From a bacterium (lineage in GTDB: Bacteria > Patescibacteriota > Minisyncoccia > Phycocordibacterales > UBA6899), in contig JAYUQG010000019.1 of assembly GCA_043756865.1 (NCBI GenBank), forward strand, positions 33,772-97,771: DNA of 64,000 nucleotides, given 5' to 3'. The notes beneath the pieces are model-generated. The model was not told where the DNA came from. It saw only the letters and a program-made list of their open reading frames with translations, and searched no databases. A program made the translations under genes and the position numbers. Below are positions 690 through 50,900 of the stretch, in pieces. How positions within the stretch are numbered: the stretch's first letter is position 1; every line of letters starts with the position of its first letter.

Positions 690-2003
690 ATGAAACACTT
701 AAAACCCGAGCAGTATTATATCGACCTTTATGACCGCCATACGGTAGAGCGGTGCCGTGGGGCAGAACGTTCGTATGCACGAACGGATGATCAACCACAG
801 GAGGAGGAAGGAGTGATCAAAGAAGAAGCAGGGCGCATGGAGAAAATGGTGAGAAAGTTATTTCTTCGCGCGGAAGCGGGAGAGCGATATCTCAATAAAT
901 CGAAGGCGATCCGTGAGTGGATGGATGCCGACAGAAATCGTGATGAATTGTTGGACTCCACACAAGCGCCCGAGGGTATCCGCTGTCTGACGTGTCGGAA
1001 TATTGTGAAGCCAACATTTAATGATCTCTGGCTTGCCACAGAAGACAAAAAACCCGAGCGGGTGCTGTTCATGTATGACTGTCCGAATGAATGTCTCCCG
1101 CGTCGTGCGTTTTTCTCCGATGGTGAGGAGTATCGCGTGAAGCCCGATCTTTGCCCGCGCTGTGATGTCCCGCTCGAAAAGAAGAGTGAGGATGACGGGA
1201 AGAAACTAACAACAACGCGCACCTGTCTGAAGTGTGGATACAGCGATACGGATGAATTCGAGTGGTCCTACAAGAAAGAGGATGAGTTCGATCCAAACTT
1301 TGCCGCCGATCGTGATCGCTTCTGCCTTACCACCGAGGAAGGTCAAAAATACTGGGAGGAAAAGTCTTGGTGGGAACGGATGGCGCAGTTTTCGGAAGAA
1401 ATTAAGAAGCAAAACGAAGATTGGGCGGCAAGGCTGGCAGCTAGCCCAAACGGCTTCATTCTCGAAGGTGTTGGTCGTACTTGTGCGATATGTGGCGATG
1501 GGTCTCGAGAAGGCGGTAGTTGGTACGATTCATACGGCTTGAAATGCTTTGTCTGCCAAAAGGCAATTGATGTCGGAGACATACCCGCCACGCTCGCAAA
1601 TGATAAGGAAAGTTGGTACAGCAAATATAATCTCGAAAGTGCGTTTAGTCTTAAGGGTCCAACTCTCAAGAAGTGGGTCAAGGATGGCGTTATCAAGTCC
1701 CGCGTCATTAGCTATTACGGTAAAGGTACTCATTGTGAGATCTTTCTCATCGAAGACAATAAGGGTTTTCTGCCTCCGAAGGAGATGGTTAAATCACATA
1801 GCGTAAGTGAGGTGAAGGATGTCAAGACTTGGCACCATTCGGAGCCATGGTATCGGTTCGTTGATCCGATGGAATATCTCAAGGACTATGGGATCATTAA
1901 GCATATGCGGGTCGTTCCGCCTGAGGAAATGGCGGCTCGGGAAGAGGAGAAGAAGCGGAAATGGGAGGAGAAACAGGAACGCAAAAAGCAAATGAAAAAG
2001 TGA
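690..2003 (+). CDS. multi-zinc-ribbon hypothetical protein with K/E-rich C-terminal tail
   Basis: ORF-track start 654 is TTG; first ATG (MKHLKPEQ) is at 690. Six Cys pairs (CLTC, CPNEC, CPRC, CLKC, CAIC, CFVC) form three predicted Zn ribbons. Tail reads EEEKKRKWEEKQERKKQMKK. Confidence 0.5.
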   Translation: MKHLKPEQYYIDLYDRHTVERCRGAERSYARTDDQPQEEEGVIKEEAGRMEKMVRKLFLRAEAGERYLNKSKAIREWMDADRNRDELLDSTQAPEGIRCLTCRNIVKPTFNDLWLATEDKKPERVLFMYDCPNECLPRRAFFSDGEEYRVKPDLCPRCDVPLEKKSEDDGKKLTTTRTCLKCGYSDTDEFEWSYKKEDEFDPNFAADRDRFCLTTEEGQKYWEEKSWWERMAQFSEEIKKQNEDWAARLAASPNGFILEGVGRTCAICGDGSREGGSWYDSYGLKCFVCQKAIDVGDIPATLANDKESWYSKYNLESAFSLKGPTLKKWVKDGVIKSRVISYYGKGTHCEIFLIEDNKGFLPPKEMVKSHSVSEVKDVKTWHHSEPWYRFVDPMEYLKDYGIIKHMRVVPPEEMAAREEEKKRKWEEKQERKKQMKK

Positions 2004-2075
2004 TACTTAAAAAATTGGTAACCATGTCATTGGACCACTTAACAGAGCCATATTTTGCGATTTTGATTAATGTGC

Positions 2076-2104
2076 TTGACAATTAGTAGCATATAGAATA
2101 CAAT
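2076..2104 (+). promoter_or_regulatory. sigma70-like promoter (TTGACA-17-TACAAT) upstream of the 2139-9606 gene string
   Basis: TTGACA at 2076-2081, 17-nt spacer, TACAAT at 2099-2104. About 35 nt upstream of the ATG at 2139. Confidence 0.45.
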
Positions 2105-2138
2105 CTTATATAAATATTACCAGTATTTATATAAAACT

Positions 2139-2816
2139 ATGAATAATGACAAAAGAGAAAGTTTCAAGCGACTCTCCCAATCCAGATTAGGAAAGATAAC
2201 AGATGCGCTTGATGTATTGGGTAACTGCTCGAATAAGAGTGCTTACGAGTACACAGAGGAGGATGTATCAGAAATTTTTGGCAAAATTGAGGAGAAAGTG
2301 CGCCAGACAAAATCAAGGTTCAAGCTAGAACCAGCTGTGCTTGTTCCTGGTGACAACAAATCTAAGACATGGAAGCAGCTTGCATCTAGTCTGAAGTCGC
2401 ATGGATCGTTGAATCATGCATTCTCTAAGACACAGTGGGGCCATCATTGCGTGCGGTTTTACATTAGAGACAGCATGTTTTGGATTACATGCTATACCGC
2501 GGATTTTAAAGATGCTGATAAGCGTAGATACGGAATATTTATCTCTTACCCAGGCTTTTTTCAGCGAAGCAATATGAGTGTCAGCCAAAAGGCAGCAGTT
2601 GATTCTTTGCAGTCGCTTTTGATTAAGAATGGCGACAAGATTAACAGTGTCCTGCCAGATGCCTATATTGCCGACAAAGATGCGGACGATGGAGAGTTGG
2701 CTGGATGGACTCGTGATCTAAGTGAGTTTCCATCAGATGAAGCGGCAATCGAATGGCTGAAATCAATGCTCGATACATATTCAGAACTTGTAGTCCCATT
2801 GATAAAAGAAGTTTAA
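2139..2816 (+). CDS. hypothetical protein (225 aa), first gene of the island operon
   Basis: ATG start. The stop is 13 nt before the next gene. No motif recognised. Confidence 0.5.
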   Translation: MNNDKRESFKRLSQSRLGKITDALDVLGNCSNKSAYEYTEEDVSEIFGKIEEKVRQTKSRFKLEPAVLVPGDNKSKTWKQLASSLKSHGSLNHAFSKTQWGHHCVRFYIRDSMFWITCYTADFKDADKRRYGIFISYPGFFQRSNMSVSQKAAVDSLQSLLIKNGDKINSVLPDAYIADKDADDGELAGWTRDLSEFPSDEAAIEWLKSMLDTYSELVVPLIKEV

Positions 2817-2829
2817 AATCTTTGGTTTC

Positions 2830-4338
2830 ATGAAATTAATATCTAAATCAAAGTTTCTTCAATATCTCGAGTGTCCAAAGGATACATGGTTTCTGCTGCA
2901 TATGCCGAACCTTCCGGAATTCGAGGTATCGACTTCTGAGCAAGGCATAATGGATCAGGGGAATGTCGTTGAAGAGTATGCAAAGAAGCTCAAAATATTT
3001 GCTGGGTATATTGAGGTCGAGAAACGGGGAAGAGAAGCAGATGAGGAAATTAGAAAACTTCTATCTCAAAAGGTTCCAGCCATATATCAACCCACCTTTG
3101 TTGCTGATGGATTTGTCATTCGTTGTGACTTCCTTGTGTGGAACAACAATGAAAGGAAGTGGGACCTGTATGAGGTGAAGGGCACTAATTCAAAAAAGGA
3201 TGAAGGGGGTCCACGGGACCACATCTCTGATATCGCATTTCAGGCAATCGTACTTGATCGCGCCGGTGTTTCCATTGGTAATAAATACATCGTCCATCTT
3301 AATAATGAGTATATTCGTGGCGACGAGTTGGATGTCGAACAGCTTTTTATTGTGAGCGACAGTACTGCTCAGGTAAAAGAAATGCTTGATGTTACTTCAG
3401 CACAAATGGAAAAGGCTAAAGAGTATCTCAATCAAGAAAATGAGCCGAAGGATGGTTGTGATTGTCATTTTAATGGTCGCAGTAGGCACTGCGACACGTT
3501 TGAGCGTTCACACCCCGAGATACCTGAATATTCCATACACGATATCTCGCGCATTGGGCTAAAGCCAGACAAGTTGATTCAGCTCATCACCGATGGAATT
3601 TATCATCTCGAGGATATCGACGACACATCAGATTTTAGTGTTATTCAGCAGAACCAAATTCATACCCACAAGACGAAGAAGGAAATTATTGATGTAAACG
3701 AGATTGCCAAGATTCTTGATGGTTATAAATATCCACTATACTTTTTTGATTACGAAACATTTGCGCCAGCGGTACCGATATACCCAGGATATGGAACATA
3801 TCGTCGTATCCCGATACAGTTCTCTTTGCACATCATAGACGAAAGGGGTGGTGCACTCCGTCACGTTGATTATGTACATACTGAAAACTCGGATCCATCT
3901 ATTTCAGTAGCCAAAATACTAGCTGATACGATTGATCCGAATGGCACTGTTCTTGCGTGGAATGTGGGGTTTGAAAAAGGTGTTACAAAAGAGCTTTCTG
4001 AACGCTTGCCGGAGTACAAAATTATACTCGATAGAATTTGTGATCAAATGCAGGATTTGCGTGATGTTTTTTCGAAACAACACTATGTGCATAAAGACTT
4101 TTGTGGGAGTTCAGGGGTGGGGGCTGTTATGGAGGCATTGTTGCCACATATGACATATGACCATCTGCCATATACGGGAAACGATGTTGGTTTCGTCTGG
4201 TGGAAGGATATTGTGAACGACGGAGCAAGTCCTGCTGATCGTGAAAAGAAGACGCACCTCATCCGTGAATACTGCAAACAAGATACTTTTGTAATGGTCG
4301 AAATCTTCCGTATCTTGAGTGATATTGCCAGAAATTAA
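2830..4338 (+). CDS. DUF2779-type nuclease-family protein (N-terminal PD-(D/E)xK / Cas4-RecB-like fold)
   Basis: N-terminus ISKSKFLQYLECPKDTWF resembles the DUF2779 family. A ..D..YEVKGT.. E-x-K motif is present, as is FFDYETFAPAVPIY. 502 aa. Confidence 0.6.
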   Translation: MKLISKSKFLQYLECPKDTWFLLHMPNLPEFEVSTSEQGIMDQGNVVEEYAKKLKIFAGYIEVEKRGREADEEIRKLLSQKVPAIYQPTFVADGFVIRCDFLVWNNNERKWDLYEVKGTNSKKDEGGPRDHISDIAFQAIVLDRAGVSIGNKYIVHLNNEYIRGDELDVEQLFIVSDSTAQVKEMLDVTSAQMEKAKEYLNQENEPKDGCDCHFNGRSRHCDTFERSHPEIPEYSIHDISRIGLKPDKLIQLITDGIYHLEDIDDTSDFSVIQQNQIHTHKTKKEIIDVNEIAKILDGYKYPLYFFDYETFAPAVPIYPGYGTYRRIPIQFSLHIIDERGGALRHVDYVHTENSDPSISVAKILADTIDPNGTVLAWNVGFEKGVTKELSERLPEYKIILDRICDQMQDLRDVFSKQHYVHKDFCGSSGVGAVMEALLPHMTYDHLPYTGNDVGFVWWKDIVNDGASPADREKKTHLIREYCKQDTFVMVEIFRILSDIARN

Positions 4339-4454
4339 TTTTGCTTTACGCCGATTAGTAATGGTTGTAGGGTAATGATTGCCGAGGGTGCATACGGGAG
4401 ATTGTCATGCATCGATCCCACTTGGCATAAAATGCAAAATATCAAAATAAATAT

Positions 4455-5666
4455 ATGAATGAAATTATTTGCCCAAATTGTAAAAAAGCTTTCAAGGTTG
4501 ACGAGACCGGATTTGCCGATATTTTAAAGCAAGTCCACGATCATGAGTTTGAAAAAGAACTAAATTCACGTGAGGAAATGCTAAAAAAAGATAAAGAAAA
4601 TGCAGTTAAACTCGCCGAGGCAAATATTACGAACTCACTGCAGAAAGACATTGCAAAGAAGGATGCTGAACTAGCCGAAATAAAATCCAAAATTAATAAC
4701 GCAGAGCTTGAGAAAAAACTTGCAGTCACTGAAGCGGTCAATAAAATTGAAAAAGAGCGCGATGAACTAGCTGGCGAGCTGAAAAGTAAAGATGCTGAGA
4801 AACAACTACTCGAGACATCACTAAAAGATAAATATACTACTGAGCTCAAGACCAAGGACGATATCATCAAGATGAAAGATGAGGAAATTGCTCTTCGTAA
4901 AGATATGAAGGTCAAGCTTTCAACAAAAATGATCGGTGAAACACTTGAACAACACTGCGAAACCGAGTTTAACAAACTTCGCGCAACTGGATTTCAGAAT
5001 TCGTATTTCGAAAAAGACAACGACGCAAAAACTGGCAGTAAGGGTGATTATATCTATCGCGAAACCGATGATGCTGGTAATGAAATCATTTCTATTATGT
5101 TTGAAATGAAAAACGAAGGCGATGAAACAGCTACCAAGAAAAAGAACGAAGACTTTTTACGCGAACTTGATAAGGATCGCGCCGAAAAAAAGTGTGAGTA
5201 TGCCGTTCTAGTTACACTTTTGGAATCTGAAAATGAGCTTTATAACACCGGCATTGTTGATGTTTCTCATAAATACCAAAAAATGTATGTAGTTCGACCA
5301 CAATTTTTCATTCCCATGATAACTCTACTACGCAACGCATCCATGAACTCGCTTAAGTATAAAGCCGAGCTTGCGGTGGTAAGGAATCAGAACATCGATA
5401 TCACCAACTTCGAGGAAAATATGAACAAGTTTAAAGATGGCTTTAAAAAAAATTATGAGCTTGCTTCAAGCCGATTTAAAATAGCAATCGATGAAATCGA
5501 CAAAACCATTGACCATCTTCAGAAAACCAAAGATGCGCTCCTGTCCTCTGAAAATAACCTTCGTCTAGCGAACAATAAAGCAGAATATCTGACAATCAAA
5601 AAACTGACGCATGCCAATCCTACAATGACTAAAATGTTCGCAGATATTACTGATGCAAGTGAATGA
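4455..5666 (+). CDS. DUF2130 family protein (N-terminal CxxC zinc ribbon, long coiled coil, globular C-terminus)
   Basis: [32 protein letters not shown] is a typical DUF2130 N-terminus. A K/E-rich heptad region follows. C-terminal segment [22 protein letters not shown] has a possible D...ExK motif. Confidence 0.65.
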
Positions 5667-5733
5667 GTACAACCTTTTGACGTTCGGTCGGTTGTATTAC
5701 ATGCAGATAATTAAATAGTGCTTTATCCAGAGT

Positions 5734-6540
5734 GTGGCGAGAGACTGGCTCAACGACCCACCGGCAACCCTCAGTAATGAGAAGGTGCCAACCAGCCCCG
5801 AAAGGGGAAAGATAAACGTCGAAACTCTTTCCTTTGTACGGATGGAGTTTTTATTATTTAGGTTCAAAAACATGAGATCAACAACTATCAGTCGTGAAGC
5901 GTACCTTGGCAGTAAAGAGGAGAAGGAAATTTATGAATTAGAGGAAATAGACAGCAACAAGTATCGGCTACTCGGACGTGCCACAGGGATTAGCATGGAT
6001 CACTGCGTACTCATCGGATCAAATCACAAAAAAGAATTCTGGCACAGAGTGTATGGATTTCAGATTATACAAAATGAAAAAACAGAGAGAGCACTGCTTG
6101 AGGCGGCGCGGAAGATCAAGCCAGAGACCGAGTCGTATGTGACCGTGCAATTCTATGAACGGCTTTCAGAAGAAAAGTATATGTTTATACCCAAGCGCCT
6201 GGAAATTGCTGACCGTCCTGAGTTAAGCAACTTTCCACTTAATATATTGTTCGGCACGGCATGTCTCACTGACAACAACAGACAAATATTCGAAACGTCA
6301 GAATATGTCCCCGACCTCACCACCTTTACAGAGGAAGGTGATGAGCAGAAGTTGCGCTACTACAATTCACTCGATAACACGCGATGCCACTCTGCAGAGA
6401 TTGTGTATAACACAAAAGACCAATCGTATGTCGGTACGAAGTATCGCGGTGATAAACATGCCGGCATGGCTTTTGGTAATGCGTGGGATCCGTTCTTTGT
6501 GCATTTCACAATGCTGGGAGTAGGGGTTAACATTGATTAG
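5734..6540 (+). CDS. hypothetical protein (start uncertain)
   Basis: ORF-track start 5734 is GTG. In-frame ATGs lie at 5842 (MEFLLF) and 5872 (MRSTT; AGGT 11 nt upstream). No motif recognised. The 5' 100 nt are unusually GC-rich. Confidence 0.4.
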   Translation: MARDWLNDPPATLSNEKVPTSPERGKINVETLSFVRMEFLLFRFKNMRSTTISREAYLGSKEEKEIYELEEIDSNKYRLLGRATGISMDHCVLIGSNHKKEFWHRVYGFQIIQNEKTERALLEAARKIKPETESYVTVQFYERLSEEKYMFIPKRLEIADRPELSNFPLNILFGTACLTDNNRQIFETSEYVPDLTTFTEEGDEQKLRYYNSLDNTRCHSAEIVYNTKDQSYVGTKYRGDKHAGMAFGNAWDPFFVHFTMLGVGVNID

Positions 6541-6554
6541 ACTGAGATTCAACA

Positions 6555-6851
6555 ATGAAACCCACAACACCCCAAACCATTTCTCCTGCCAAGATGACGT
6601 TTGCCGTAGAGGCAAACTACGCGTCTTCGGGTTGGAAGACTCTGGTATTCAATTGCTATTGCCATACGCTGTTTGAGGCCGCCGAGGCAATTGGGACAGC
6701 AACACACTGTTCAGTAGCAGAATCAATCCGCTTGGCAGGCGTTGCCGAAACAACTGGCCAAGCAATCGTCATGGAAGGATCAGAATTTGAATGTGAGACA
6801 GCTGCCGGGGTGATTCGCGGCCGTGGACTTACCTCGCTCGCAACGACTTAG
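6555..6851 (+). CDS. small hypothetical protein (98 aa)
   Basis: ATG ORF filling the gap between flanking genes. GC is higher than its surroundings, so it could instead be structured RNA. Confidence 0.3.
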   Translation: MKPTTPQTISPAKMTFAVEANYASSGWKTLVFNCYCHTLFEAAEAIGTATHCSVAESIRLAGVAETTGQAIVMEGSEFECETAAGVIRGRGLTSLATT

Positions 6852-6960
6852 CTTAAATCATGCACCATGTCTAATCTTGGCTAATCTGCAATTGCACTCT
6901 TGCCAAAAATCAGAAAATAAGCATAACAATATATGTATTTTCATGTAGTATTCAAGATAT

Positions 6961-9606
6961 ATGATTATCAAGGGCATATGTCACAGGTGTCATAATTATG
7001 GGGATATCCAGCCGAACGGATATACCATGGAGGGTATTTGTGAAAATTGTATCAAGGGCGCCCAGCGCGAAAAAATACAAGAGCAGGAAAGGGTAGATAA
7101 AGAGCGACAAGAAAGAATTATCGCCGCTCTTGCACCAGCACAAGCTCTCCTGTCAGGTGGGAATATCATCGGCGCAGACCAGGTTGCTCTTGAGCAAGGA
7201 TCGGACGAATTGCTTGATGAATACGAAAAAATTAAGTCTAAGTATATACAAAAGGATTTACGAAACTTGGAGAAAGAACTCGAGGTGGGTGAAGGATATT
7301 TTGACGATGAAAAGGCCGTTGCTCTTTCTAAAACAGGAAAAAATATCCTTGTTCAAGCGCGAGCTGGTTCGGGGAAGACGACTGCAATAGCGTTGCGAGT
7401 GCGCCACCTAATTAAATTTTACGGTGCGAAGCCCGAAGAAATACTCATTCTTGCATTTAACAGGAAGGCAGCAGAAGAGTTTCGACTACGAATCAATAGC
7501 TACTTCAAAGGATCAAATCAAATTGCTACGGAATCTAACACACTAACATTCCATGCTCTCGCGCGTAGAATAGCAAATACTACAAAGAACATATTGCAGG
7601 ATGAGAGCAGGGATGGGAGCGAGGAGGGACGACATGGTGAAGACAAGAAGTTACAGATTGATTTTGTGCGAGAATGTTTTAATAAGGTAGAAAAAGAAGG
7701 ACATGGTCTTATCGAAAAACTTTTCTATCTATTTTTAAAATCGGCGTCTGAAAAAATTGGTGGCTTATTTAGAAACAGCGAGGACTACTATCTATATTTA
7801 CGAAACCTACAACACGTAACGATAGCTGGAGAGATTGTTAAGTCAAGAGGGGAGAAGTATATTGCCGATTTTCTATTCGAGCATCGAGTTACAAAAAATG
7901 GAAGGGAAATTGAATATGCATATGAGCGCAACATTAAAAAGAATATTAATGCAACTCGTCCATATAGCCCCGACTTCTCACTATTTTTTGTTGAAGATGA
8001 GGAGAAATTAGACCTTCAGGCCGTTGTCGAATTCTTTGGTTTTACCGAAAGTTATCCTGGGTACCCCGGGTTTTTTGAATCGCGGGCTGCGTCCAGGTCA
8101 TATCTAAACGAAGCAGAGCAAAAAAGAATATTATTTCGAGATAAGGACATGAAGCTGGTTGAAATGAACGCCAATGACCTGACATCTTCTGCAGATGTTA
8201 AATTAGAAAATAAGGAAGACGCAAACCGGCAGTGGTTTGAGGAAATCCTTCGACAGCGACTTACGCGGTCTGGTTTCGATATTTCTAAAGAGTGCCTAAG
8301 TATTAAGGAAATACTTGCAAAAATTCCCAAGGTGGAAAGAAGAAAAAAAGCATTGGTAAAACAAATAACGCAATTCATTAACAAGGCTCAAAAAATATCT
8401 TACGATCCGGATACGATCAGAACAATTGCGGGAAAAGAGAAGGAAAACGGAAGATTGAGTAAGCGCACAGAGTATTTTATTAAAATGGCATGTCGAGTAT
8501 ATGAGGAATATCATTCCAGACTGGAGAAGGAGCCGTTCACTGACTTCGACGGACTTCTTGTTGATGCAATAAAGAGAATTAAAAATGAAGGTAGCGTCTG
8601 CAAGATATTGCCCAAGGGAGGAAAGGGAGAGTCCCAAGATATAGGAAACATAAAATACATACTTATTGACGAGTACCAGGACTTTTCGAAATTATTTTGC
8701 GAGCTTATTGATGCAATCAGAACAAATAATCCACAAGTTTCATTTTTTTGTGTCGGAGATGATTGGCAGGCTATCAATGCATTTGCGGGCTCAGATTTAG
8801 AATATTTTGATAACTTTGAAAAATATTTTGTTGGCGGCCGTCGAACAAAGTTGCTGACGAACTATCGTAGTTGTGCACACATAATCGAGCATGCTAATTG
8901 TCTAATGAGGGGCAGGGGTGATGATGGAAAACCACAAGCACAAAAAGCTTTCGGTAGAGTGTATCTCATGTCGTTGCTTTGGGTTGAGAACAGACGGGAT
9001 CAAGAATATGAAGCAGAGTTTTTAGAAGATGAAAAATATAGGTCGGCTGCAAAGTTGCTTCTGGGACTTGAGGATGCTGATAAAGCAGCCCCATTTGAAC
9101 TTGTCTCTTACTTAAAAACCGTCGAGAAGGTTGTAAATGATTTGCCGTCGGATAAAAACATCTGCCTACTATTTCGTGGCAACCACATTCGTGGGTCCGA
9201 AATAACCAAATTCACAGAACAAATCCGTGCATGGACATCAGGTAATAAAAATAGAGTCATATGTTCGACGGCCCATGGATTTAAGGGAAAGGAATGCGAC
9301 GCAATCGTTGTGGTTGATGCAAACCATAGAAGTTATCCAAAGTTTCATCCCGACAATGAGCTAATGGAAATACTCGGCGTAACGTTGTCGAAGGTGATAG
9401 ACGAGGAGCGTCGCCTATTCTATGTGGCAATTACGAGAGCAAAGGAAAGTTTATATTTGCTATATGACAACGGTGCGACGGTTGGTATATCGGATTTTAT
9501 TGGAGAAATTGAAAAAGGTGGCTGGAATTATGAGTTAATGTCATCACGTGGCTCAAGTAAGAAGCTAGACGAGGAGCTAGATATGGGTGATGAAATTGCC
9601 TTTTAA
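6961..9606 (+). CDS. SF1 UvrD/PcrA-like DNA helicase with N-terminal zinc ribbon and large 1B-region insertion
   Basis: N-terminal CHRCHNYG..CENC. Walker A AGSGKTT. Motif II YILIDEYQDF, motif III VGDDWQAINAFAGS, motif IV NYRS, motif V TAHGFKGKECD, motif VI FYVAITRAKESLYL. About 400 aa inserted between motifs Ia and II. Confidence 0.8.
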   Translation: MIIKGICHRCHNYGDIQPNGYTMEGICENCIKGAQREKIQEQERVDKERQERIIAALAPAQALLSGGNIIGADQVALEQGSDELLDEYEKIKSKYIQKDLRNLEKELEVGEGYFDDEKAVALSKTGKNILVQARAGSGKTTAIALRVRHLIKFYGAKPEEILILAFNRKAAEEFRLRINSYFKGSNQIATESNTLTFHALARRIANTTKNILQDESRDGSEEGRHGEDKKLQIDFVRECFNKVEKEGHGLIEKLFYLFLKSASEKIGGLFRNSEDYYLYLRNLQHVTIAGEIVKSRGEKYIADFLFEHRVTKNGREIEYAYERNIKKNINATRPYSPDFSLFFVEDEEKLDLQAVVEFFGFTESYPGYPGFFESRAASRSYLNEAEQKRILFRDKDMKLVEMNANDLTSSADVKLENKEDANRQWFEEILRQRLTRSGFDISKECLSIKEILAKIPKVERRKKALVKQITQFINKAQKISYDPDTIRTIAGKEKENGRLSKRTEYFIKMACRVYEEYHSRLEKEPFTDFDGLLVDAIKRIKNEGSVCKILPKGGKGESQDIGNIKYILIDEYQDFSKLFCELIDAIRTNNPQVSFFCVGDDWQAINAFAGSDLEYFDNFEKYFVGGRRTKLLTNYRSCAHIIEHANCLMRGRGDDGKPQAQKAFGRVYLMSLLWVENRRDQEYEAEFLEDEKYRSAAKLLLGLEDADKAAPFELVSYLKTVEKVVNDLPSDKNICLLFRGNHIRGSEITKFTEQIRAWTSGNKNRVICSTAHGFKGKECDAIVVVDANHRSYPKFHPDNELMEILGVTLSKVIDEERRLFYVAITRAKESLYLLYDNGATVGISDFIGEIEKGGWNYELMSSRGSSKKLDEELDMGDEIAF

Positions 9607-9809
9607 GTGACACTCGCCGATCTCATTCCTGTGTCACTTTTGTCACTTTTTCAACGTGCCCGAGACCCTTCGTTGTGATAATCTGAAACTAGGCGATTCG
9701 GCCAAGGTGGGCTTGGCCGACCACGGTTCTAGCTCGAGACGGCCAGCCAAGTTATAGTGAAATGAGGTAACCTCTTGAATTGTTAGCTGGAGGCAGATAA
9801 TATACTGAT

Positions 9810-29836: not shown

Positions 29837-30199
29837 ATACGGCTTGCGAACCACAAGCAATGTCTCTGTTCGGCTTCCACGTGTCGTACGGGTCAATGCA
29901 ATCTAGGTTGAGATCAAGGTCGAGCTGCTCACCCGCTGCGGTCTTCGCGCCTGAGTTTGGCTTTTTGTGCTCCCCATCATGTCCGAGGGGAAGTATACAA
30001 TGCCCAATGGGGGGACGCGTAATTGAACCCGGACCCCAGATAGCTGCACCACATGCAGTGTCGATGCTCATATGGTCTCCAATTGTGTCTCTATTCATCA
30101 TACATGCATGGCACGCATTTGTGCATAAAGATATGAGGGAAGTGAGGCAAAGAATAACACGCGTTGCCCAAAAGACAATTTTATGCTATCTTGTCAAGT

Positions 30200-32245
30200 A
30201 TGCCATTTAAATTGAAGTCCGACTGGGAACCCGCTGGAGACCAACCCAAAGCAATTGCAGGGTTGCTTTCGGGCATAAATTCGGGTATGCGCTACCAGAC
30301 ATTGCTCGGTGTTACGGGTTCAGGCAAAACATTCACTGCAGCAAATATCATTGCCAAAATTGGAAAACCGACATTGGTTGTAGCGCACAACAAAACCCTT
30401 GCTGCGCAGCTCGCACAAGAATATAGAATGTTTTTCCCTGAGAATGCCGTACACTACTTTGTTTCGTACTACGACTACTACCAGCCTGAAGCATATCTCC
30501 CCACCACGGATACCTATATTGAAAAGGATGCGCAGATAAACGACGAAATCGACCGCCTTCGGCACGCCTCGACACAAGCACTTCTGTCACGAAAGGACGT
30601 CATTATTGTCGCTTCTGTATCGTGTATATATGGACTCGGTTCTCCTGATGAGTATCTCAAAGTAAACCTCAAACTCACCGTAGGGGATAAAATTGCGCGC
30701 AACGACGTGATTCGCAAACTGGTAAACATATACTTCGAACGCACAAACGCAGATCTTGGCCCCGGAACGTTCCGCGGAATAGGCAATACACTTGAAATTA
30801 TGCCAACAGGTGAGATTATGATTTACCAACTGACTTTTTCAGGAAGCCTGATACAGCAAATACAAAAGATTGATCCAATAACACGAGCAGTGGTGGGCGA
30901 GCTTGATTCGACGTTTTTCTTTCCCGCAAAACACTTCATCACTTCTCTTGAAGAACGCAAACGCGCACTCGGCTCCATTCAGGAAGAATTAACAGCACAG
31001 CTTGCAGTATTTGCAAAAGAAGGAAAAATACTCGAAGCAGAACGCTTGAAACGACGTACGCGCTACGATATGGCCATGATTGAGGAGGTGGGGTACTGCA
31101 GTGGAATCGAAAACTATTCGCGTCATTTTTCAGGAAAAGCTCCAGGCGAAGCTCCCGATACGCTACTTTCATATTTTCCGCACTTAAGTGACGGAACTCC
31201 TGACTTTCTTACCATTATAGACGAGTCACACGTTACCATACCGCAAATACGAGGTATGTTTGCGGGTGATGCGTCACGTAAGAAAACACTAATTGAGCAC
31301 GGTTTTCGACTTCCATCTGCTGCCGACAATCGGCCGCTGAAGTTCCCCGAATGGGAGCAGCGTGTAGGAACAGTAATTTTCACCTCAGCAACACCATCTG
31401 TCTATGAACATGACGTGGGTGAACAGGTTGTGGAACAAGTCATACGACCAACCGGACTCGTGGACCCTGAGATTATTATCCGACCTGTCGTTTCAAATGC
31501 TACGTATCCCGGTCAAGTTGCCGACTTTATCGACGACGCTATAAGAACGGCAAAAAAGGATGAACGTATTTTGGTGACCACACTCACAAAAAAAATGGCT
31601 GAAGACCTTGCAACGTATCTCAAGGAAAAAGGTGTAAAGTCGGAATACCTCCATAGTGACGTTAAGACAATCGAACGTATAAAAATTCTTACGGAGTTTC
31701 GCAAGGGTACATTTGATTGTCTCGTTGGCGTGAACTTGCTCCGCGAAGGACTCGACTTGCCCGAAGTTTCCCTCGTGGCTATTTTTGATGCGGACAAGGA
31801 AGGATTTTTACGTTCTGCAACTTCGCTGATACAAACCATGGGGCGCGCGGCCCGAAATGTTTCTGGTAGAGTACTCTTGTATGCCGACATCATGACTGGG
31901 TCGATGGACGCCGCTATCAAGGAGACAAATCGTCGCCGTGCCGTACAGCTCGCGCACAACAAAGCCCACGGGATTACTCCGGTGTCTATCAAGAAGAAAA
32001 TCAAGGACATCACCGAAGAACTTCAGTCTGTACACGAAAAAACCTTGAAAGCACTTTTTGTACTCGACAAGAAGGCATATGACAAAAATCCTGAAAAAAT
32101 TATTAAGCAGAAGGAAAAACAAATGCTCGCGGCGGTGAAGGAGCTTGATTTTGAAACTGCAGCCCTTCTGCGTGATGAAATAAAGATGCTTCGCGGAGAA
32201 ACTGTAACGCCACGTGGTGACGTTGCAAGGAGAAAGAATAGATAA
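30200..32245 (+). CDS. uvrB: excinuclease ABC subunit B
   Basis: FKLKSDWEPAGDQPKAI, GVTGSGKTFT, YFVSYYDYYQPEAY, C-terminal UVR motif. ORF-track start 30164 is TTG; ATG at 30200. Confidence 0.9.
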   Translation: MPFKLKSDWEPAGDQPKAIAGLLSGINSGMRYQTLLGVTGSGKTFTAANIIAKIGKPTLVVAHNKTLAAQLAQEYRMFFPENAVHYFVSYYDYYQPEAYLPTTDTYIEKDAQINDEIDRLRHASTQALLSRKDVIIVASVSCIYGLGSPDEYLKVNLKLTVGDKIARNDVIRKLVNIYFERTNADLGPGTFRGIGNTLEIMPTGEIMIYQLTFSGSLIQQIQKIDPITRAVVGELDSTFFFPAKHFITSLEERKRALGSIQEELTAQLAVFAKEGKILEAERLKRRTRYDMAMIEEVGYCSGIENYSRHFSGKAPGEAPDTLLSYFPHLSDGTPDFLTIIDESHVTIPQIRGMFAGDASRKKTLIEHGFRLPSAADNRPLKFPEWEQRVGTVIFTSATPSVYEHDVGEQVVEQVIRPTGLVDPEIIIRPVVSNATYPGQVADFIDDAIRTAKKDERILVTTLTKKMAEDLATYLKEKGVKSEYLHSDVKTIERIKILTEFRKGTFDCLVGVNLLREGLDLPEVSLVAIFDADKEGFLRSATSLIQTMGRAARNVSGRVLLYADIMTGSMDAAIKETNRRRAVQLAHNKAHGITPVSIKKKIKDITEELQSVHEKTLKALFVLDKKAYDKNPEKIIKQKEKQMLAAVKELDFETAALLRDEIKMLRGETVTPRGDVARRKNR

Positions 32246-37561: not shown

Positions 37562-40225
37562 ATGGCTGACAAGAAACCGAAGGCGTCCGAACTCTCTTCA
37601 ATAATTGTGAGAGGAGCGCGTACGCATAATCTCAAGAATATTACGGTAGAAATGCCCCGCAATAAAATGGTGGTTATTACGGGGCTTTCGGGTTCCGGAA
37701 AATCATCGCTTGCATTCGACACCATATTTGCCGAAGGACAACGTCGCTACGTCGAATCACTATCTGCCTATGCTCGTCAATTTCTCCATCAGATGCAAAA
37801 ACCAGATGTGGATGAAATTGTCGGACTTTCTCCTGCTATTTCAATTGACCAGAAATCACATTCCTCAAATCCGCGCTCGACCGTAGCAACTATCACCGAG
37901 ATATATGACTATCTCCGCGTGTTGTATGCACGTATTGGTATTCCGCACTGTCTCACCTGTGGCAAACCCATCAAACGACTTACAAACGAAGAAATCATGA
38001 ACTTTGTTTTTGAGCGCGTTGACGTCATCGGCAAGCATGCTCCCAAGGACACAGTGCTTGGCGTTCAATATTCTGCGCTCAAAGTCGGTATCTATGCTCC
38101 TGTGGTGCGTGGGAGAAAAGGTGAGTACTATCAGCTACTGTACGATTACCTCTCGAAAGGATATTCACGCGCACGCATCGACGGAAAGCACAAGAATTTA
38201 CGCGAACAAATCATTCTGACCAAAACAAAAAAACACGATATTGATATCGTCGTTGATGAGTTTTTTATATCCGAGTTTACAGACAACACAAAGGGCGTAC
38301 GTGAGCGACTGGCAGAAGCCGTTGAGCGAGCGCTCGACGAAACTGACGGACTTGTCCGCATGGTCATAGGCGACGAAGACCGCCTGATGTCTGCAAAGTT
38401 TGCTTGTCCCGATGACGGATTTTCATACCCTGAGGTTGAGCCGCGACTCTTTTCGTTTAATTCACCAGCAGGGGCGTGTCAGGGGTGTAATGGGTTAGGA
38501 ACAAAGCATTTCTTCGGTGACGAGCCATGTGAGGTCTGCCACGGTGCGCGATTGCGCGAGGAAGCCCTACATGTAACTATCGGAGATGCGGATGCTCGTG
38601 CGGAGGCAGAACTCAGCAAGAAAAAAATCGGAGACACCATTCCCCGAGGGAAAAACATTACACAAATTACCGACTTGTCGATTGAAGAGGCAGATGCATT
38701 CTTCAGGTCGCTTTCGCTTACGCCGACGGAAAAAGAAATATCTAATGTCGTGATAAAGGAAATTCAATCACGTCTCACCTTTATGCGCGACGTGGGTATC
38801 GGCTATTTAACGCTTGGGCGACGCGCCAATACACTCTCGGGCGGAGAGGCCCAGCGTATCCGCCTCGCATCGCAACTCGGCTCGCGTCTCGTTGGTGCAT
38901 TGTACGTGCTCGACGAACCAACAATTGGTTTACATCAGCGCGATAACGACCGGTTAATCAAAACACTGCGTGATTTATGCGACATGGGCAACACCATCAT
39001 TACCGTTGAGCATGACGAGGACACTATTTTCGCTTCTGACTACCTAATCGACATAGGACCAGGGGCGGGCGTACACGGTGGCGAAGTAGTTGCCTCCGGC
39101 TACCTCGAGGAATTGCTTCTGAACAAAAAAGAAAAGTCGCTTACACTGGACTACTTGCGTGGTGACAAGCAAGTAGCAATACCTGAAAAACGTCGAGATA
39201 AAGAAAAGGGTACACTCCAAATACGCGGAGGAAGGGCGTTCAATATCACGAACATGAATGTAGATATCCCGCTTGGGAGACTCGTTGCTATCACTGGCGT
39301 GTCTGGGTCTGGGAAATCAACCCTCCTCTATGAACTCATATACAAAAACCTCCAAGCACGTTTCGAGCGCAAATATCGTTCGGCAAAGACCTACAACTGT
39401 GCTTCATTTCTGGGAACGGAGTACCTCCACCGTACTATTCTCATCGACCAATCACCAATTGGACGCACCCCGCGTTCAAATCCCGCTACCTATACTGGAG
39501 CATGGACATTTATTCGCGACATGTTTGCGGAGACGGAGGAGGCGAAGGTGCGCGGATGGAAGCCATCGCGATTCTCTTTTAACGTAAAGGGAGGCCGCTG
39601 TGAAGCCTGCGAGGGAAACGGCATGATTGCAGTGGAAATGCACTTTCTCCCCACGGTATATGTGCTTTGTGATGTATGCCAAGGTAAGCGCTTCCAAAAG
39701 GAGACACTTGAAGTGAAATTTAAAAAGAAAAGCATATACGAAATACTTAAGATGACTATCGAGGAAGCGCGGGATTTCTTCCAAGATATTCCCGCCATTT
39801 CCGACAGATTACGCTCGCTCACCGACGTGGGGCTTGGGTATTTGGAATTAGGCCAGTCTGCTACAACACTTTCCGGTGGAGAGGCTCAACGTGTCAAAAT
39901 CGCATCGGAACTGTACCGTCCGCTTATGCAGCGCACGATGTACTTACTTGATGAGCCAACAATTGGCCTGCACTATGAGGACGTTAAAAAACTCATTGAA
40001 ATTCTCCAGACACTTGTCGACAAGGGAAATTCAGTCCTGTTGATTGAACACAATCTTGACGTTATAAAATCTGCGGACTATGTCATAGATATCGGCCCAG
40101 AGGGTGGAGCTGGCGGTGGACAACTGACGGGTAAGGGCACACCGGAGGAGCTCGCTGGAAATGCGAAGTCCTACACTGGTCAGTACCTCAAGAAGATGCT
40201 ATCGAAAAGAAAAAAGGGATCCTAG
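37562..40225 (+). CDS. uvrA: excinuclease ABC subunit A
   Basis: Two ABC modules ([10 protein letters not shown] / [10 protein letters not shown]; LSGGEAQR x2). Zn-finger Cys clusters. Confidence 0.9.
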
Positions 40226-43415: not shown

Positions 43416-43488
43416 GGGCCGTTAGCTCATCTGGTAGAGCACCGCATTTGCAATGCGGGGGTGGCAGGTTCGAGTCCTGTACGGTCCA
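43416..43488 (+). tRNA. tRNA-Ala (anticodon TGC)
   Basis: Cloverleaf by eye: acceptor GGGCCGT/ACGGTCC, D-arm GCTC..GAGC, anticodon arm CCGCA-TTTGCAA-TGCGG, T-arm GCAGG-TTCGAGT-CCTGT, discriminator A. No encoded CCA. Confidence 0.85.
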
Positions 43489-43496
43489 CAAGCGTC

Positions 43497-43523: not shown

Positions 43524-43745
43524 CGCTTGTGGACCGTAGCAAGCTAACTGCTTGGCTTGCGTAAGGACTCGAAAGGCTTTGCGATGTTTATGAAGCATTC
43601 TGATGCTGAATAAACCGCAAAGGCATACAGTCCTCGTAGAGGAAGAGTCATGTGTAATTGCTTGTCGAGATTTCTTTGCAGCAAAAGCGTAGTAGATTTT
43701 TGTTGAGGCGCAAATATAAAACGCCCACCAGCGTCTTATTATTTG

Positions 43746-43818
43746 TGGACCATAGCGGACTCGAACCGCTCACCTCATCCATGCCATGGATGCGCTCTAC
43801 CAGATGAGCTAATGGCCC
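43746..43818 (-). tRNA. tRNA-Ala (anticodon GGC)
   Basis: rc reads GGGCCAT-TA-GCTC-ATCTGGT-AGAGC-G-CATCC-ATGGCAT-GGATG-AGGTG-AGCGG-TTCGAGT-CCGCT-ATGGTCC-A. It is convergent with the other tRNA-Ala. Confidence 0.8.
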
Positions 43819-47842: not shown

Positions 47843-47872
47843 CGCCCACATCCTTCTGTGAGGCGGTTTTTT
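47843..47872 (+). terminator. rho-independent terminator
   Basis: aaCCGCCcacatccttctgtgaGGCGGtttttt. Confidence 0.55.
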
Positions 47873-47917
47873 GACTCAAGAGTCTGCATGATAACCGGTG
47901 CGTGGTACAATGCGCCC

Positions 47918-50900
47918 ATGCACGCGAGCAAGAAATTTGATGAGGCATACCAGAGTCTCAATACGGAGCAGAAAATAGCAGTCGATACTATCGACGGACC
48001 CGTGATGGTCATTGCAGGTCCCGGTACAGGGAAAACACAAGTACTCGCACTTCGCGTCGGAAACATTCTCAAAAAAACTGATGCACGCCCCGGCAATATT
48101 CTTTGTCTCACATTTACTGATGCGGCGGCTATCAACATGCGAGAGCGTCTTGCGCGACTTATTGGCGCAGAGGGCTACAAGGTTGCCGTGCACACCTTTC
48201 ATAGTTTCGCGAGCGATATCATCGGTGCATATCCTGAATACTTTTATCATGGAGCTGACTTTCTTCCCGCCGACAACCTCAAGCAACTCGAAGTACTGGA
48301 AGAAGTATTTGCAGAACTCCCTCGCAGTAACCCACTCGCGTCAAAGCATGGAGACGAATACACCTATTTACGCGACGCGAAAAAGGCAATTCAATCACTC
48401 AAGCGTGCAGGACTGACACCTGAAGAATTCAGTGCAATCATAGAAGAAAACAAAAAGAGCCTTGGAGTAATTTCTCAAGGCATAGACGGTGTGTTTGCTG
48501 ATAGGTTATCTCAGAAAAGCATTGCGTTGGCAGCAGATCTTGCGGCATCACTGGCACGCCTGCCCGAGCAAGCGGGTGCCACGACGCGCACGCTGTCCCA
48601 CACGGTTGCAATTTCACTTACGCGCGCAGTTGCACTCGCACAGGAAGAGGAAAAGACGGCACCACTCTCGGCGTGGAAGGAAAAGTGGGCCAAAAAGAAT
48701 GAGGAGGGCGAACGTGTGCTCAAAGATGCACTCTATGTTGAAAAAATGGAGGCACTGATGTACGTGTACCGTAGGTACCGCGAGCTCATGCACCGTGAAC
48801 GGTATTATGACTTCGACGACATGCTACTCGACGTCGTCTGCGAATTATCCAAAAGCACATCACTGCTTTCGGACTTGCAGGAACGTTATCAATACATTCT
48901 CGTCGACGAGTTTCAGGACACCAACGATGCGCAACTACGCCTTGTGCGACTCCTTGGTAACGCGGAGGTTAATGAAGGAAAGCCAAACATTATGATTGTC
49001 GGCGACGACGATCAGGCAATTTATCGTTTTCAAGGTGCAGAGATTTCTAATATTCTAGATTTCCCAAAACAGTTCAGCGCACATGCACTCGTGGTGCTCA
49101 CAAAAAACTATCGCTCGACACAACACATCCTCGATGTCGCACGAGAGGTTATTGAGAAAAGCGAAGAACGTCTTGAGTCTGTTATCCCTACACTAGAGAA
49201 GAAGCTAGTCGCATCGCGACCTGAGCTCGGAGCAGGCAATATCGTCCACATGTTGTTACCAACACGCACCCACGAGTATGCCTATATTGCGCGGGAAATA
49301 CACGACCTCATCGACAAGGGGCATGATCCTTCTGAAATTGCGATTATCACGCGAAAGCATCGCGAGCTCGAAGACGTAGCACGCGTACTGGTGAGTGCGG
49401 GAATTCCTATCAACTACGAGCGAAAGCAAAACGTATTTGAGGAACCGCACGTAAAAATACTTATAACGATGGGGCGCTTCGTCTCGTCACTTATGCGTGA
49501 TGGTAAGGTGCCCGCCGACCACTTACTCCCCACCATTCTCTCAGCACCGTTTTGGGGACTTTCTCGTGAAACTATTTGGGACATATCCGTCAGTGCCGCA
49601 ACACGTATTGACCGCATGTGGCTCAACGCCATGCGTGAGCATCACGATACCAGTGTCAGAGATATTGCGAATTGGTTCATACGACTCGGGGCTGACTCTC
49701 ACCACGACCCACTTGAGCGCATACTCGACGAACTCATCGGCACCGAGGACGTACTCCTACCAGGCGGAGGAGGGGAAGAGGAGACCCATGAGACTTCCGC
49801 AACCCCCCATGCAAAGTCAAAGCGCGTGCGCTCATTCAAGAGTCCATTTCGTGAATTTTATTTTGGTAATGATGCACGAAGTGGCGCGGAATCAACGTAT
49901 CTGCTATTTCTCTCAAGTCTTCGCGTCTTCATGAACACACTGAAAGTGTTTAAGAATGGAAAGCCACTCTTTATTAACGATATCGCGCTTTTTGTAGATA
50001 TGCATGAACGGCACGACATCGCACTTCCCGACACAACCCCATTTGTCAGTGCGAAAAAAGCCGTACATTTGATGACTGCACACAAGGCGAAAGGGCTTGA
50101 GTTCGAAACCGTCTTTGTTGCCTCATGCCAAGAAGAAATATGGGCGGGGCGAGGTTTTCCAAATAAACTTCCATTTCCGACAAATCTACCCATCGAGCCG
50201 GGGGAAGGGGGCGACGACAGGCTACGCATCTTTTACGTCGCAATGACACGTGCGAAAAAGCATTTGTATATCACCTCGTACCGCAAAAGTGACTCAGGCA
50301 AGGACTCGTTGAAAATCGGCTTCATCGTACCAGAGACAGACGGGGGCGCTATTGCTACGCACCTCTATGAGCAAGAGACCGTTATTTCTGCAGAGGAAAT
50401 AATGCGTGACATGTCGGAACACACCGTGAATCCTGCATATTTTTCCGTCACTCTCGGTGAACGCGCAATACTCGAAGAGCGGGTAAAGGATTATCACATG
50501 AGCGTCACACATCTCAATAATTTTCTTGATGTAACAAACGGTGGTCCTGCATATTTCTTGGAACAAAACCTGTTGAGCTTCCCGCAAGCGAAAAGCCCGA
50601 GTAGTGTGTACGGCTCCGCAATGCACAAAGGAGTCGAGCGATTTTATACGGAATTGAAAAAAACAGGAAAGGTGCCGTTGGAGGATAAATTGCTCGCGGG
50701 ATTTCGTGACGAAATGAAACGTGGACGCATCACCGAATCAGAGTATAAACATTTCTTGCGTGCGGGTGAAGAAGCGCTGCCTGTGTGGTATCGCGAGCGA
50801 GGAAAATTTGCCGACAAAAAGCACTACTCGGAGTTTAATTTCAAGGGGCAAGGTGTCGTTGTCGACGGTGTGCCCATAGTTGGGAAAATAGACAAAATGA

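Follow-up and report, generated by a model that had tools for sequence, protein, structure and literature searches.

DUF2130 protein encoded in a low-GC island of a Patescibacteriota genome: a predicted PD-(D/E)xK nuclease with a helical stalk of quantised length

Described systems and membership of the DUF2130 family

The zinc hook of Rad50 consists of two CPxC half-sites, which belong to two chains and share one zinc ion. The CoCoNuT type IV restriction systems, which serve in defence, combine PD-(D/E)xK nucleases with long coiled coils and zinc motifs of the CPxC type (PMC11090510). In the Shield system, the protein ShdA, a nuclease with an RmuC domain, provides phage defence alone and degrades DNA in vitro (PMC10270631). 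The family DUF2130 (PF09903, COG4487) is represented by row 109 in the census of the PD-(D/E)XK superfamily by Steczkiewicz et al. 2012, where its source is given as ‘Pfam’ and its function as ‘Unknown’ (PMC3424549); accordingly, the assignment of the nuclease fold to this family is prior knowledge. No functional study was found in a full-text literature search for DUF2130, COG4487, PF09903 and IPR019219; the initial annotation of this DNA had described the family as having no assigned function. The search otherwise returned incidental mentions in proteomic and genomic papers, including the detection of a Granulicatella DUF2130 protein by proteomics, and a metagenome-correlation study. A ‘DUF2130’ protein reported in Anabaena proteomics was rejected as irrelevant, the match being a non-significant one (E=0.027) on a protein of 91 aa.

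The window analysed here, the whole stretch of 64,000 nucleotides, contains one gene of interest, the features of which are collected in Table 1 together with those of its surroundings. Its product, already named a DUF2130 protein in the initial annotation, matches PF09903 with 296.8 bits (E=1.5e-88) over aa 129-386, corresponding to profile positions 3-254 of 255, and exceeds the gathering score of 26.7 bits; besides DUF2130, no Pfam, NCBIfam or PHROG assignment was obtained for this protein. A record of an identical protein exists on a contig of 187 kb. Judged by its sequence, the gene is an ordinary DUF2130 member of typical length and architecture with all family-conserved residues present, and nothing substantive sets it apart from the other proteins of this known but uncharacterised family.

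An exhaustive HMMER search with aa 129-403 as the query yielded, at E<=1e-3, at least 2,235 clusters formed at 50% identity, out of 1.84 billion representatives. Members of the family were found in at least 587 species genomes, belonging to Patescibacteria, Bacteroidota, Pseudomonadota, Bacillota and Actinomycetota; plasmids of dairy and rhizobial origin also carry it. The best 120 homologues are 80-91% identical to the window protein and originate from many CPR lineages; the window protein belongs to a CPR-centred clade, the members of which are at least 80% identical to it. Identity to the window protein is 50-79% in the best 150 of the 2,235 clusters, and the C-terminal domain retains 73-89% identity across phyla. 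DUF2130 is a broadly distributed family with an unusually well conserved nuclease domain.

Table 1. Features of the DUF2130 gene and of the island that carries it (positions in the window)
Feature	Position	Strand	Basis or remark
DUF2130 gene	4455..5666	+	ATG start, 403 aa plus stop codon; ORF list and PF09903 match
Conserved knuckle domain, aa 1-32, beta-hairpin then helix start	4455..4550	+	alignments, AF2
CPNC, aa 6-9, sole Cys pair of the N-terminal domain (putative half zinc site)	4470..4481	+	
Variable-length K/E-rich helical stalk, aa 33-158	4551..4928	+	AF2 helices, composition, periodogram, length quantisation
PD-(D/E)xK nuclease core (predicted)	4929..5387	+	aa 159-311
E162 and E165 (GETLEQHC), acidic, just before or at start of helix 1	4938..4949	+	alignment
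K196-G197-D198, ‘D’ of the PD motif, start of strand 2	5040..5048	+	alignment, codons, strand starts at aa 198
E217-M218-K219, (D/E)xK motif, end of strand 3	5103..5111	+	alignment, strand aa 210-219
Fixed-length heptad C-terminal helix, aa 316-382	5400..5600	+	best-predicted part of the model, pLDDT 80-89
C-terminal tail with conserved LTxxNPTM motif	5601..5663	+	L384, N388, P389, T390, M391 invariant in the close set
Low-GC island carrying the gene	1600..9700	.	approximate boundaries; runs on beyond the left end of the window as far as a serine recombinase
225-aa ORF of no known family	island	+	listed before the Cas4-like/DUF2779 protein
Cas4-like/DUF2779 protein	2830-4338	+	
268-aa ORF of no known family	island	+	listed after DUF2130
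881-aa UvrD/helicase IV-like protein	island	+	GajB-like PADLOC matches; listed after the 268-aa ORF

Nuclease core, helical stalk and N-terminal knuckle

The nuclease domain occupies the middle of the chain. Conservation of its residues was counted in 141 cluster representatives (of the best 150), 50-79% identical to the window protein and aligned with it. D198 is retained in 141 of 141 sequences, position 217 is occupied by glutamate in 136 and by aspartate in 5, and K219 is retained in 140. Residues E162 and E165 are each present in 139 of the 141 representatives; D188, K196, D241, R242 and K245 are each present in all of them; C168 and C247 were found in 139 and 140, respectively, while E248, E257, K276 and the triplet R281-P282-Q283 are almost invariant. 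The initial annotation had noticed a hydrophobic-D...E-M-K pattern, located in the 22-residue segment of aa 198-219 (window positions 5046-5111), had taken it for a possible cryptic PD-(D/E)xK domain and had proposed that the conservation of the D, E and K residues be followed across DUF2130 homologues. Since these residues are conserved in the 141 representatives, the pattern is exactly the PD-(D/E)xK signature of DUF2130; the domain is real by motif and by predicted core fold, and it was already recorded in databases (PMC3424549).

Structure prediction of the C-terminal region by AlphaFold (AF2), also proposed in the initial annotation, returned a restriction-endonuclease-like core. For the full-length protein, with an alignment of 80-91% identical sequences, pLDDT was 70-85 at the N-terminus and below 50 in the globular part; for aa 140-403, with a more diverse alignment from a profile search, a moderately confident model was obtained (mean pLDDT 66, pTM 0.37). 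The order of elements in this model is represented by a helix (aa 164-178), three strands (aa 184-188, 198-204 and 210-219), a helix (aa 228-245), three further strands (aa 248-253, 267-269 and 277-280), a helix (aa 282-311) and a long helix extending to approximately aa 378. The predicted core is the canonical alpha-beta-beta-beta-alpha-beta arrangement, in which D198 opens strand 2 and E217-x-K219 closes strand 3, so that the alignment and the model together place an acidic residue in strand 2, the (D/E)xK motif in strand 3 and an acidic residue in helix 1. The window protein very probably has the PD-(D/E)xK (restriction-endonuclease) fold, and its nuclease domain is predicted, with good likelihood, to be catalytically competent.

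A Foldseek search of the PDB gave nothing significant (best E=0.14). Most structural neighbours of the predicted nuclease domain are DNA endonucleases; the neighbours include the nuclease domains of Can2/Card1-type proteins, Cap4 and type II restriction enzymes, with 6-18% sequence identity. Sequence searches of the PDB, started either from the window protein or from the profile of the family, produced coiled-coil noise only (SMC6, RIB43A, tropomyosin), and these matches were rejected. It is highly improbable that the protein is an RNA-cleaving member of the PD-(D/E)xK superfamily and not a DNA nuclease, or that its role is a structural or scaffolding one in which the nuclease-like domain only binds nucleic acid: the near-invariance of the full catalytic set E...D...ExK speaks against an inactivated domain, the structural neighbours are mostly DNA endonucleases, and the restriction-modification (R-M) operons described below point to DNA as the substrate.

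The stalk of approximately 140 aa is represented in the AF2 model by helices at aa 17-130 and 135-154 (pLDDT 70-85), of which the first contains 44% charged residues and zero prolines. The initial annotation had described this region as about 150 aa of heptad-rich K/E coiled coil; the K/E-rich helix is retained in the prediction, but its period is 3.63 residues and no heptad signal was detected. In the window protein, the signal at 3.5 is absent (z=0.28), while the family-average hydrophobic periodogram of the stalks has its peak at 3.63 with a power of 1.06 and reaches only 0.20 at 3.5, against a shuffle background of 0.23. Autocorrelation maxima were found at lags 7, 11, 18, 22 and 29, and 29/8 gives the same value of 3.63.

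The length of the stalk, measured from CPxC to GE(S/T)LE(Q/E), varies from 94 to 383 aa across 92 representatives and is quantised at 3.63 aa: the Rayleigh R is 0.79, a value reached in 0/1000 jitter nulls, whose mean is 0.22 and whose maximum is 0.40. When every stalk length is entered a single time, R is 0.72 (0/1000), and two additional sets gave the quantisation again (R=0.89 and 0.98). Within the close clade, with at least 80% identity, stalk lengths of 144, 155 (75 cases), 166 and 177 (42 cases) were found, corresponding to steps of 11 aa. No earlier description of the 3.63-residue quantisation for DUF2130 was found in the literature searched.

Only the C-terminal helix, aa 316-382, is heptad-like, with a family peak at 3.53 (power 2.0 vs 0.24) and z=5.2 at period 3.5 in the window protein. 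Its length is fixed: the distance from RPQ to NP(T/S)M is 107 aa in 78 of 82 sequences and 108 aa in the other 4. In the tail that follows, L384 is 99% conserved among cluster representatives.

These periodicities suggest that heptads and hendecads are mixed in the stalk, that it forms a coiled-coil rod with almost no twist, whose seam continues without a break between knuckle and nuclease, and that its length may vary by whole helical turns only. Because the hydrophobic seam with a period of 3.63 is uninterrupted, a nearly untwisted coiled-coil rod within a homo-oligomer is most likely. In the window protein such a rod would be about 23 nm long, and it would fix the angular position of the knuckle, at its tip, relative to the nuclease domains. 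The finding offers a concrete structural hypothesis, a stalk that is free in length, but only by whole helical turns.

The N-terminal domain, aa 1-32, has the family consensus xxIxCPxCGxxFxxDExxYxxIxxQVRDxEF and is predicted by AF2 to contain strands at aa 3-5 and 12-14 and a helix from aa 17 (pLDDT 70-78). Among the 141 representatives, C6 and P7 are each conserved in 127 and C9 in 126, and no second Cys/His pair is conserved in this domain. The CPNC sequence had been read in the initial annotation as a zinc ribbon; the motif itself stands at aa 6-9 and is conserved, but it forms a single CPxC knuckle with no second pair of ligands. A four-ligand zinc ribbon was rejected, as only C6 and C9 are conserved and Zn_ribbon_4 is matched by its first half only (profile positions 3-17 of 36), with 19.8 bits against a cut-off of 30.3; LysW (5k2m_E) and C2H2 fingers align at the first knuckle only. 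A C2H2-type finger was also rejected, as H28 and H30, although present in the window protein, are variable, position 28 being R or K in 117 of 141 sequences. C168 and C247 are retained in sequences devoid of CPxC, and so neither obviously represents the missing ligands. An entire Zn(Cys)4 site would probably have to be assembled from two chains: with only two cysteines per chain, the knuckles of two chains may jointly bind one zinc ion.

Genomic context of DUF2130 genes

In the window, the gene is located in an island with a GC content of 0.413, compared with 0.476 for positions 10000-64000, and represents the GC minimum of this island (GC 0.373, GC3 0.369). GC3 of the backbone is about 0.49-0.53, as found for the housekeeping genes of UvrA, UvrB, an AddA-like helicase-nuclease and glycosyltransferases. 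Genes for a large serine recombinase and an N6_N4 methyltransferase were found on the same contig upstream of the window. The scan for promoters and terminators gave nothing above shuffle expectation. The DUF2130 gene of the window is in no R-M operon, and its neighbours do not recur beside DUF2130 elsewhere, with the exception of DUF2779 in one lineage.

Nine independent loci of close relatives (at least 80% identical), the window included, were examined. In three of them, the DUF2130 gene begins 4-23 nt after a pair of genes for an EcoRI-type methylase and a GmrSD-HNH protein; in three others, it begins 17-18 nt after the gene of type I HsdR, one of which is a truncated remnant. In total, in six of the nine contexts DUF2130 is located 4-23 nt downstream of HsdR or of the methylase and GmrSD-HNH pair. 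The remaining contexts are represented by a locus with a recombinase and unassigned ORFs, a locus with no defence genes, and the window itself. The operonic linkage of DUF2130 to restriction genes in CPR genomes appears to be undescribed; this linkage and the 3.63-residue quantisation of the stalk appear to be new, while the nuclease assignment is already known.

In the family as a whole, neighbours were scanned in 71 species and no conserved partner gene was found. Among 131 immediate neighbours, 128 were included in the Pfam scan, three long ORFs being left out, and these 128 represent 161 Pfam families, the commonest of which are AAA_21 (5), SMC_N (4), ResIII (3) and HsdR domains (2). Since neither recurring neighbours nor a partner gene were detected, DUF2130 behaves as a self-contained cargo gene. 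Among the matches listed, PADLOC models (E<=1e-10) were matched by roughly 15-20 of the 131 immediate neighbours and by roughly 6-7 of the 85 comparison genes, taken from the same loci at a distance of 5 kb or more, which corresponds, among these listed matches, to a modest family-wide enrichment of defence genes near DUF2130 of roughly 1.7-fold. Recurrent downstream genes matching defence candidates include three of the PDC-S37/Hhe-like type, of 1,936 aa, and one PDC-S46.

DUF2130 was found on 75 plasmid records, 53 of which are conjugative or mobilizable. In the Lactococcus plasmids pNP40 and p275D, the DUF2130 gene is followed by the gene of an 846-aa AAA_21/Ppl-like ATPase and is surrounded by LlaJI-type methylases and Abi genes; pNP40 is a phage-resistance plasmid. 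In the reports on lactococcal antiphage screens that were examined, no mention of DUF2130 or of its ATPase neighbour was found. Phage origin of the gene was rejected, as none of 50,697 phage records contains DUF2130 and PHROG yielded no match either.

A selfish function in the mobile element itself, namely, persistence of the island or plasmid, exclusion of competitors or processing of DNA during transfer or integration, would account for the linkage with large serine recombinases, IS elements and conjugative or mobilizable plasmids (53/75), and the low GC of the gene and its high identity between phyla are in keeping with frequent transfer. It is nevertheless rather improbable, given that the location of the gene with respect to those for recombinases, relaxases or replication is not constant and that many chromosomal copies have no adjoining mobility genes. 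Moreover, it overlaps with the reading preferred here, because defence genes are also carried as island cargo.

A housekeeping role was also considered, in which an RmuC-like recombination or repair nuclease, a structure-specific endonuclease, would act in the DNA of the cell itself on hairpins, cruciforms or recombination intermediates, the defence contexts being incidental. Such a role fits the strong conservation of the C-terminal domain (50-79% in the best 150 of 2,235 clusters and 73-89% across phyla), the mostly heterogeneous, non-defence neighbourhoods outside the CPR clade and the proximity of genes of UDG and RecG in one CPR context; the helical N-terminal region preceding a PD-(D/E)xK domain also recalls RmuC. 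However, the family is patchy and small (2,235 clusters in 1.84 billion representatives), plasmids and compositionally foreign islands are among its carriers, and in close relatives the gene is repeatedly the last one of R-M operons. Nor is there a detectable relationship to RmuC (hhalign probability 0.3-0.4%): membership in RmuC was rejected, as PF02646 was unmatched at E<=10 and the hhalign probability was 0.4% with E. coli RmuC and 0.3% with an RmuC profile of 10 sequences, built from plasmid-borne homologues. On balance, a repair role of this kind is unlikely.

The best overall explanation, with a probability of about 0.5, is that DUF2130 is a PD-(D/E)xK nuclease on a rod, carried as island cargo and cutting DNA in conflicts with foreign DNA. 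The protein would comprise a catalytically competent, metal-dependent nuclease domain (aa 159-311) placed between the stiff stalk and the heptad helix. Its gene would be the cargo of a horizontally acquired island with no obligate partner gene, and DNA would be cut in conflicts with foreign genetic elements either by this protein alone or as an accessory of R-M systems. Taken separately, the defence or R-M accessory role is tentative, at slightly less than an even chance. Against this role stand the heterogeneous neighbourhoods outside the CPR clade, as well as the C-terminal domain, the 73-89% identity of which across phyla is unusually high for a defence gene; conservation of this degree is compatible with frequent horizontal transfer as well as with a conserved substrate in the cell, such as a repair role like that of RmuC would imply. 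If DUF2130 is a defence or R-M accessory nuclease, it adds a defence gene unflagged by PADLOC, including in the industrially relevant plasmid pNP40.

Comparison with known systems

No ATPase domain was found in the window protein with Pfam or NCBIfam, so the likeness to SMC-like or Rad50-like scaffolds suggested in the initial annotation was abandoned. Membership in SMC, Rad50 or LmuB was rejected, as the protein has no P-loop/ABC domain and the matches originate from the stalk: the match to SMC6 is at the level of the stalk (E=0.21), and the match to LmuB in PADLOC-DB v2.0.0 (E=7.7e-4, 15.7 bits) is spread over aa 5-374 and includes no ATPase domain. LmuB is also the sole PADLOC match of the pNP40 homologue (1e-5). 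Apart from this weak stalk-level match to LmuB, no system model of PADLOC-DB v2.0.0 was matched by DUF2130.

In DUF2130, as in Rad50/SbcC, the tip of a long helical rod carries a two-cysteine CPxC(G) motif. Whereas the hook of Rad50/SbcC sits at the apex of an intramolecular antiparallel coiled coil, the motif of DUF2130 is located at the N-terminus (residues 6-9). The helices flanking the nuclease domain, unlike those of Rad50 and SMC, are unequal, the N-terminal one being variable and the C-terminal one fixed at about 67 aa; with an N-terminal stalk of 94-383 aa, pairing of the two over their whole length is impossible. By analogy with the hook, a more specific role can be imagined: a widespread nuclease directed against foreign DNA, working by itself or encoded by the last, accessory gene of type I and methylase/GmrSD-HNH restriction operons, in which nuclease the rod capped by a zinc half-site would serve as a rigid spacer or bridge. 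The rods could join tip-to-tip via a shared zinc, in the manner of the Rad50 hook but without an ATPase, and the nuclease domains would then be set at defined distances and orientations on DNA. This elaboration is speculative and, as a whole, has a low probability.

In contrast to its structural neighbours of the Can2/Card1 and Cap4 types, DUF2130 contains no CARF or SAVED sensor domain. In RmuC and ShdA, as in DUF2130, a single gene encodes a PD-(D/E)xK nuclease domain preceded by a helical N-terminal part. DUF2130 differs from both in its extra C-terminal helix of fixed length and from ShdA in carrying a CPxC knuckle at the N-terminus in place of the membrane anchor; as no sequence relationship to RmuC is detectable, the analogy with ShdA is functional only. 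With respect to CoCoNuT, the defining McrB-like GTPase and McrC (DUF2357) are neither part of DUF2130 nor adjoining it, while the combination of a coiled coil, a CPxC motif and a PD-(D/E)xK nuclease is common to both.

Conserved cysteines and stalk of the DUF2130 protein

Two cysteine residues, C168 and C247, located within the nuclease domain of the DUF2130 protein, are 99% conserved; C168 adjoins H167 in the motif GETLEQHC, and C247 immediately precedes strand 4. Both residues are also retained in DUF2130 homologues lacking the N-terminal CPxC, and they may be involved in a metal site, a disulfide or packing. The C-terminal domain is 73–89% identical across genomes of Patescibacteria, Bacteroidota, Pseudomonadota, Lachnospiraceae and Coriobacteriales (loci L017–L096), which is far above expectation for an accessory gene of patchy distribution; this conservation may result from transfer or from functional constraint.

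The stalk connecting the CPxC knuckle to the nuclease domain, represented by aa 33–158 in the window's protein, is 94 to 383 aa long across this protein and homologues P0121–P0390, and its length changes only in increments close to a single turn of the helix (a period of 3.63 aa with R = 0.79, reached by 0/1000 nulls). Hydrophobic residues along the stalk recur with that same period, 3.63 and not 3.5. Within the close clade, stalk lengths differ by steps of 11 aa.

Coordinates of the described features (window positions unless a locus is named)
Feature	Coordinates	Strand
449-aa protein with CxxC pairs	654-2003	+
Low-GC block	~1600-9700	
502-aa Cas4-like/DUF2779 protein	2830-4338	+
DUF2130, 403 aa	4455-5666	+
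Stalk, aa 33–158	4551-4928	
C168 codon	4956-4958	
C247 codon	5193-5195	
881-aa UvrD/helicase IV-like protein	6961-9606	+
UvrB	30164-32245	
UvrA	37562-40225	
tRNA-Ala	43416-43489	+
tRNA-Ala	43745-43818	-
AddA-like helicase	47858-51289	
Methyltransferase and recombinase, left of window	L001:1019-5592	
214-aa ORF, stretch similar to 449-aa protein	L006:10758-11114; L007:3221-3577	
DUF2130-ATPase pair, pNP40	L012:7001-10871	
1,936-aa gene next to DUF2130	L028:8793-14600; L030:8793-14600; L057:8814-14624	
HsdR then DUF2130	L006:4930-9293; L099:3932-8224; L008:7251-9290; L018; L023	

Acquired island and chromosomal backbone

The block carrying the DUF2130 gene has a GC content of 0.41 versus 0.48, which marks it as an acquired island. 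Genes of an N6_N4 methyltransferase and a large serine recombinase were found to the left of the window on the same contig. Directly upstream of DUF2130 is the gene of the 502-aa protein, comprising a Cas4-like N-terminal region (PADLOC Cas4, 3.8e-6) and a DUF2779 domain (1e-33). In loci L004 and L005 its homologue, 44% identical, lies directly downstream of DUF2130; accordingly, the DUF2779-DUF2130 pair is found again, with its gene order inverted, in one further CPR lineage.

The 881-aa protein, whose N-terminus is rich in Cys and His (CHRCHN...CENC), showed strong PADLOC matches to GajB-like and DRT-associated helicases (1e-38); its homologues are absent from all other DUF2130 loci examined. 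The 449-aa protein contains several CxxC pairs and has no family assignment. A 119-aa stretch of it shares 34% identity with a 214-aa ORF that lies downstream of DUF2130, at a distance of a few genes, in a different CPR island.

The backbone encodes UvrB, UvrA and an AddA-like helicase ending in a C-terminal PDDEXK_1 nuclease, and the host accordingly possesses standard repair nucleases of its own, separate from the island DUF2130. Two genes for tRNA-Ala, with anticodons TGC and GGC, face one another on opposite strands, approximately 250 nt apart.

Gene partners of DUF2130 in other genomes

A type I HsdR gene precedes DUF2130 in five loci, one of these genes being a 243-aa C-terminal remnant. 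The spacer between the two genes is the same 17–18 nt in all five, which suggests that HsdR-DUF2130 is a conserved module moving as a unit.

In the Lactococcus phage-resistance plasmids pNP40 and p275D (L013), DUF2130 is followed after 46 nt by the gene of an 846-aa ATPase ('TrlF family', AAA_21; PADLOC Ppl, 7e-18), and a divergent 376-aa gene is present upstream. The restriction–modification systems flanking the DUF2130-ATPase pair differ between the plasmids, and the pair is unmentioned in the lactococcal antiphage literature examined.

In three Bacteroidota genomes, a gene beginning 12–33 nt downstream of DUF2130 encodes a 1,936-aa protein with DUF4011, SF1 helicase, MTES_1575 endonuclease and DUF3320 domains, which matches the PADLOC models PDC-S37 (E = 0) and Hhe (5e-159).
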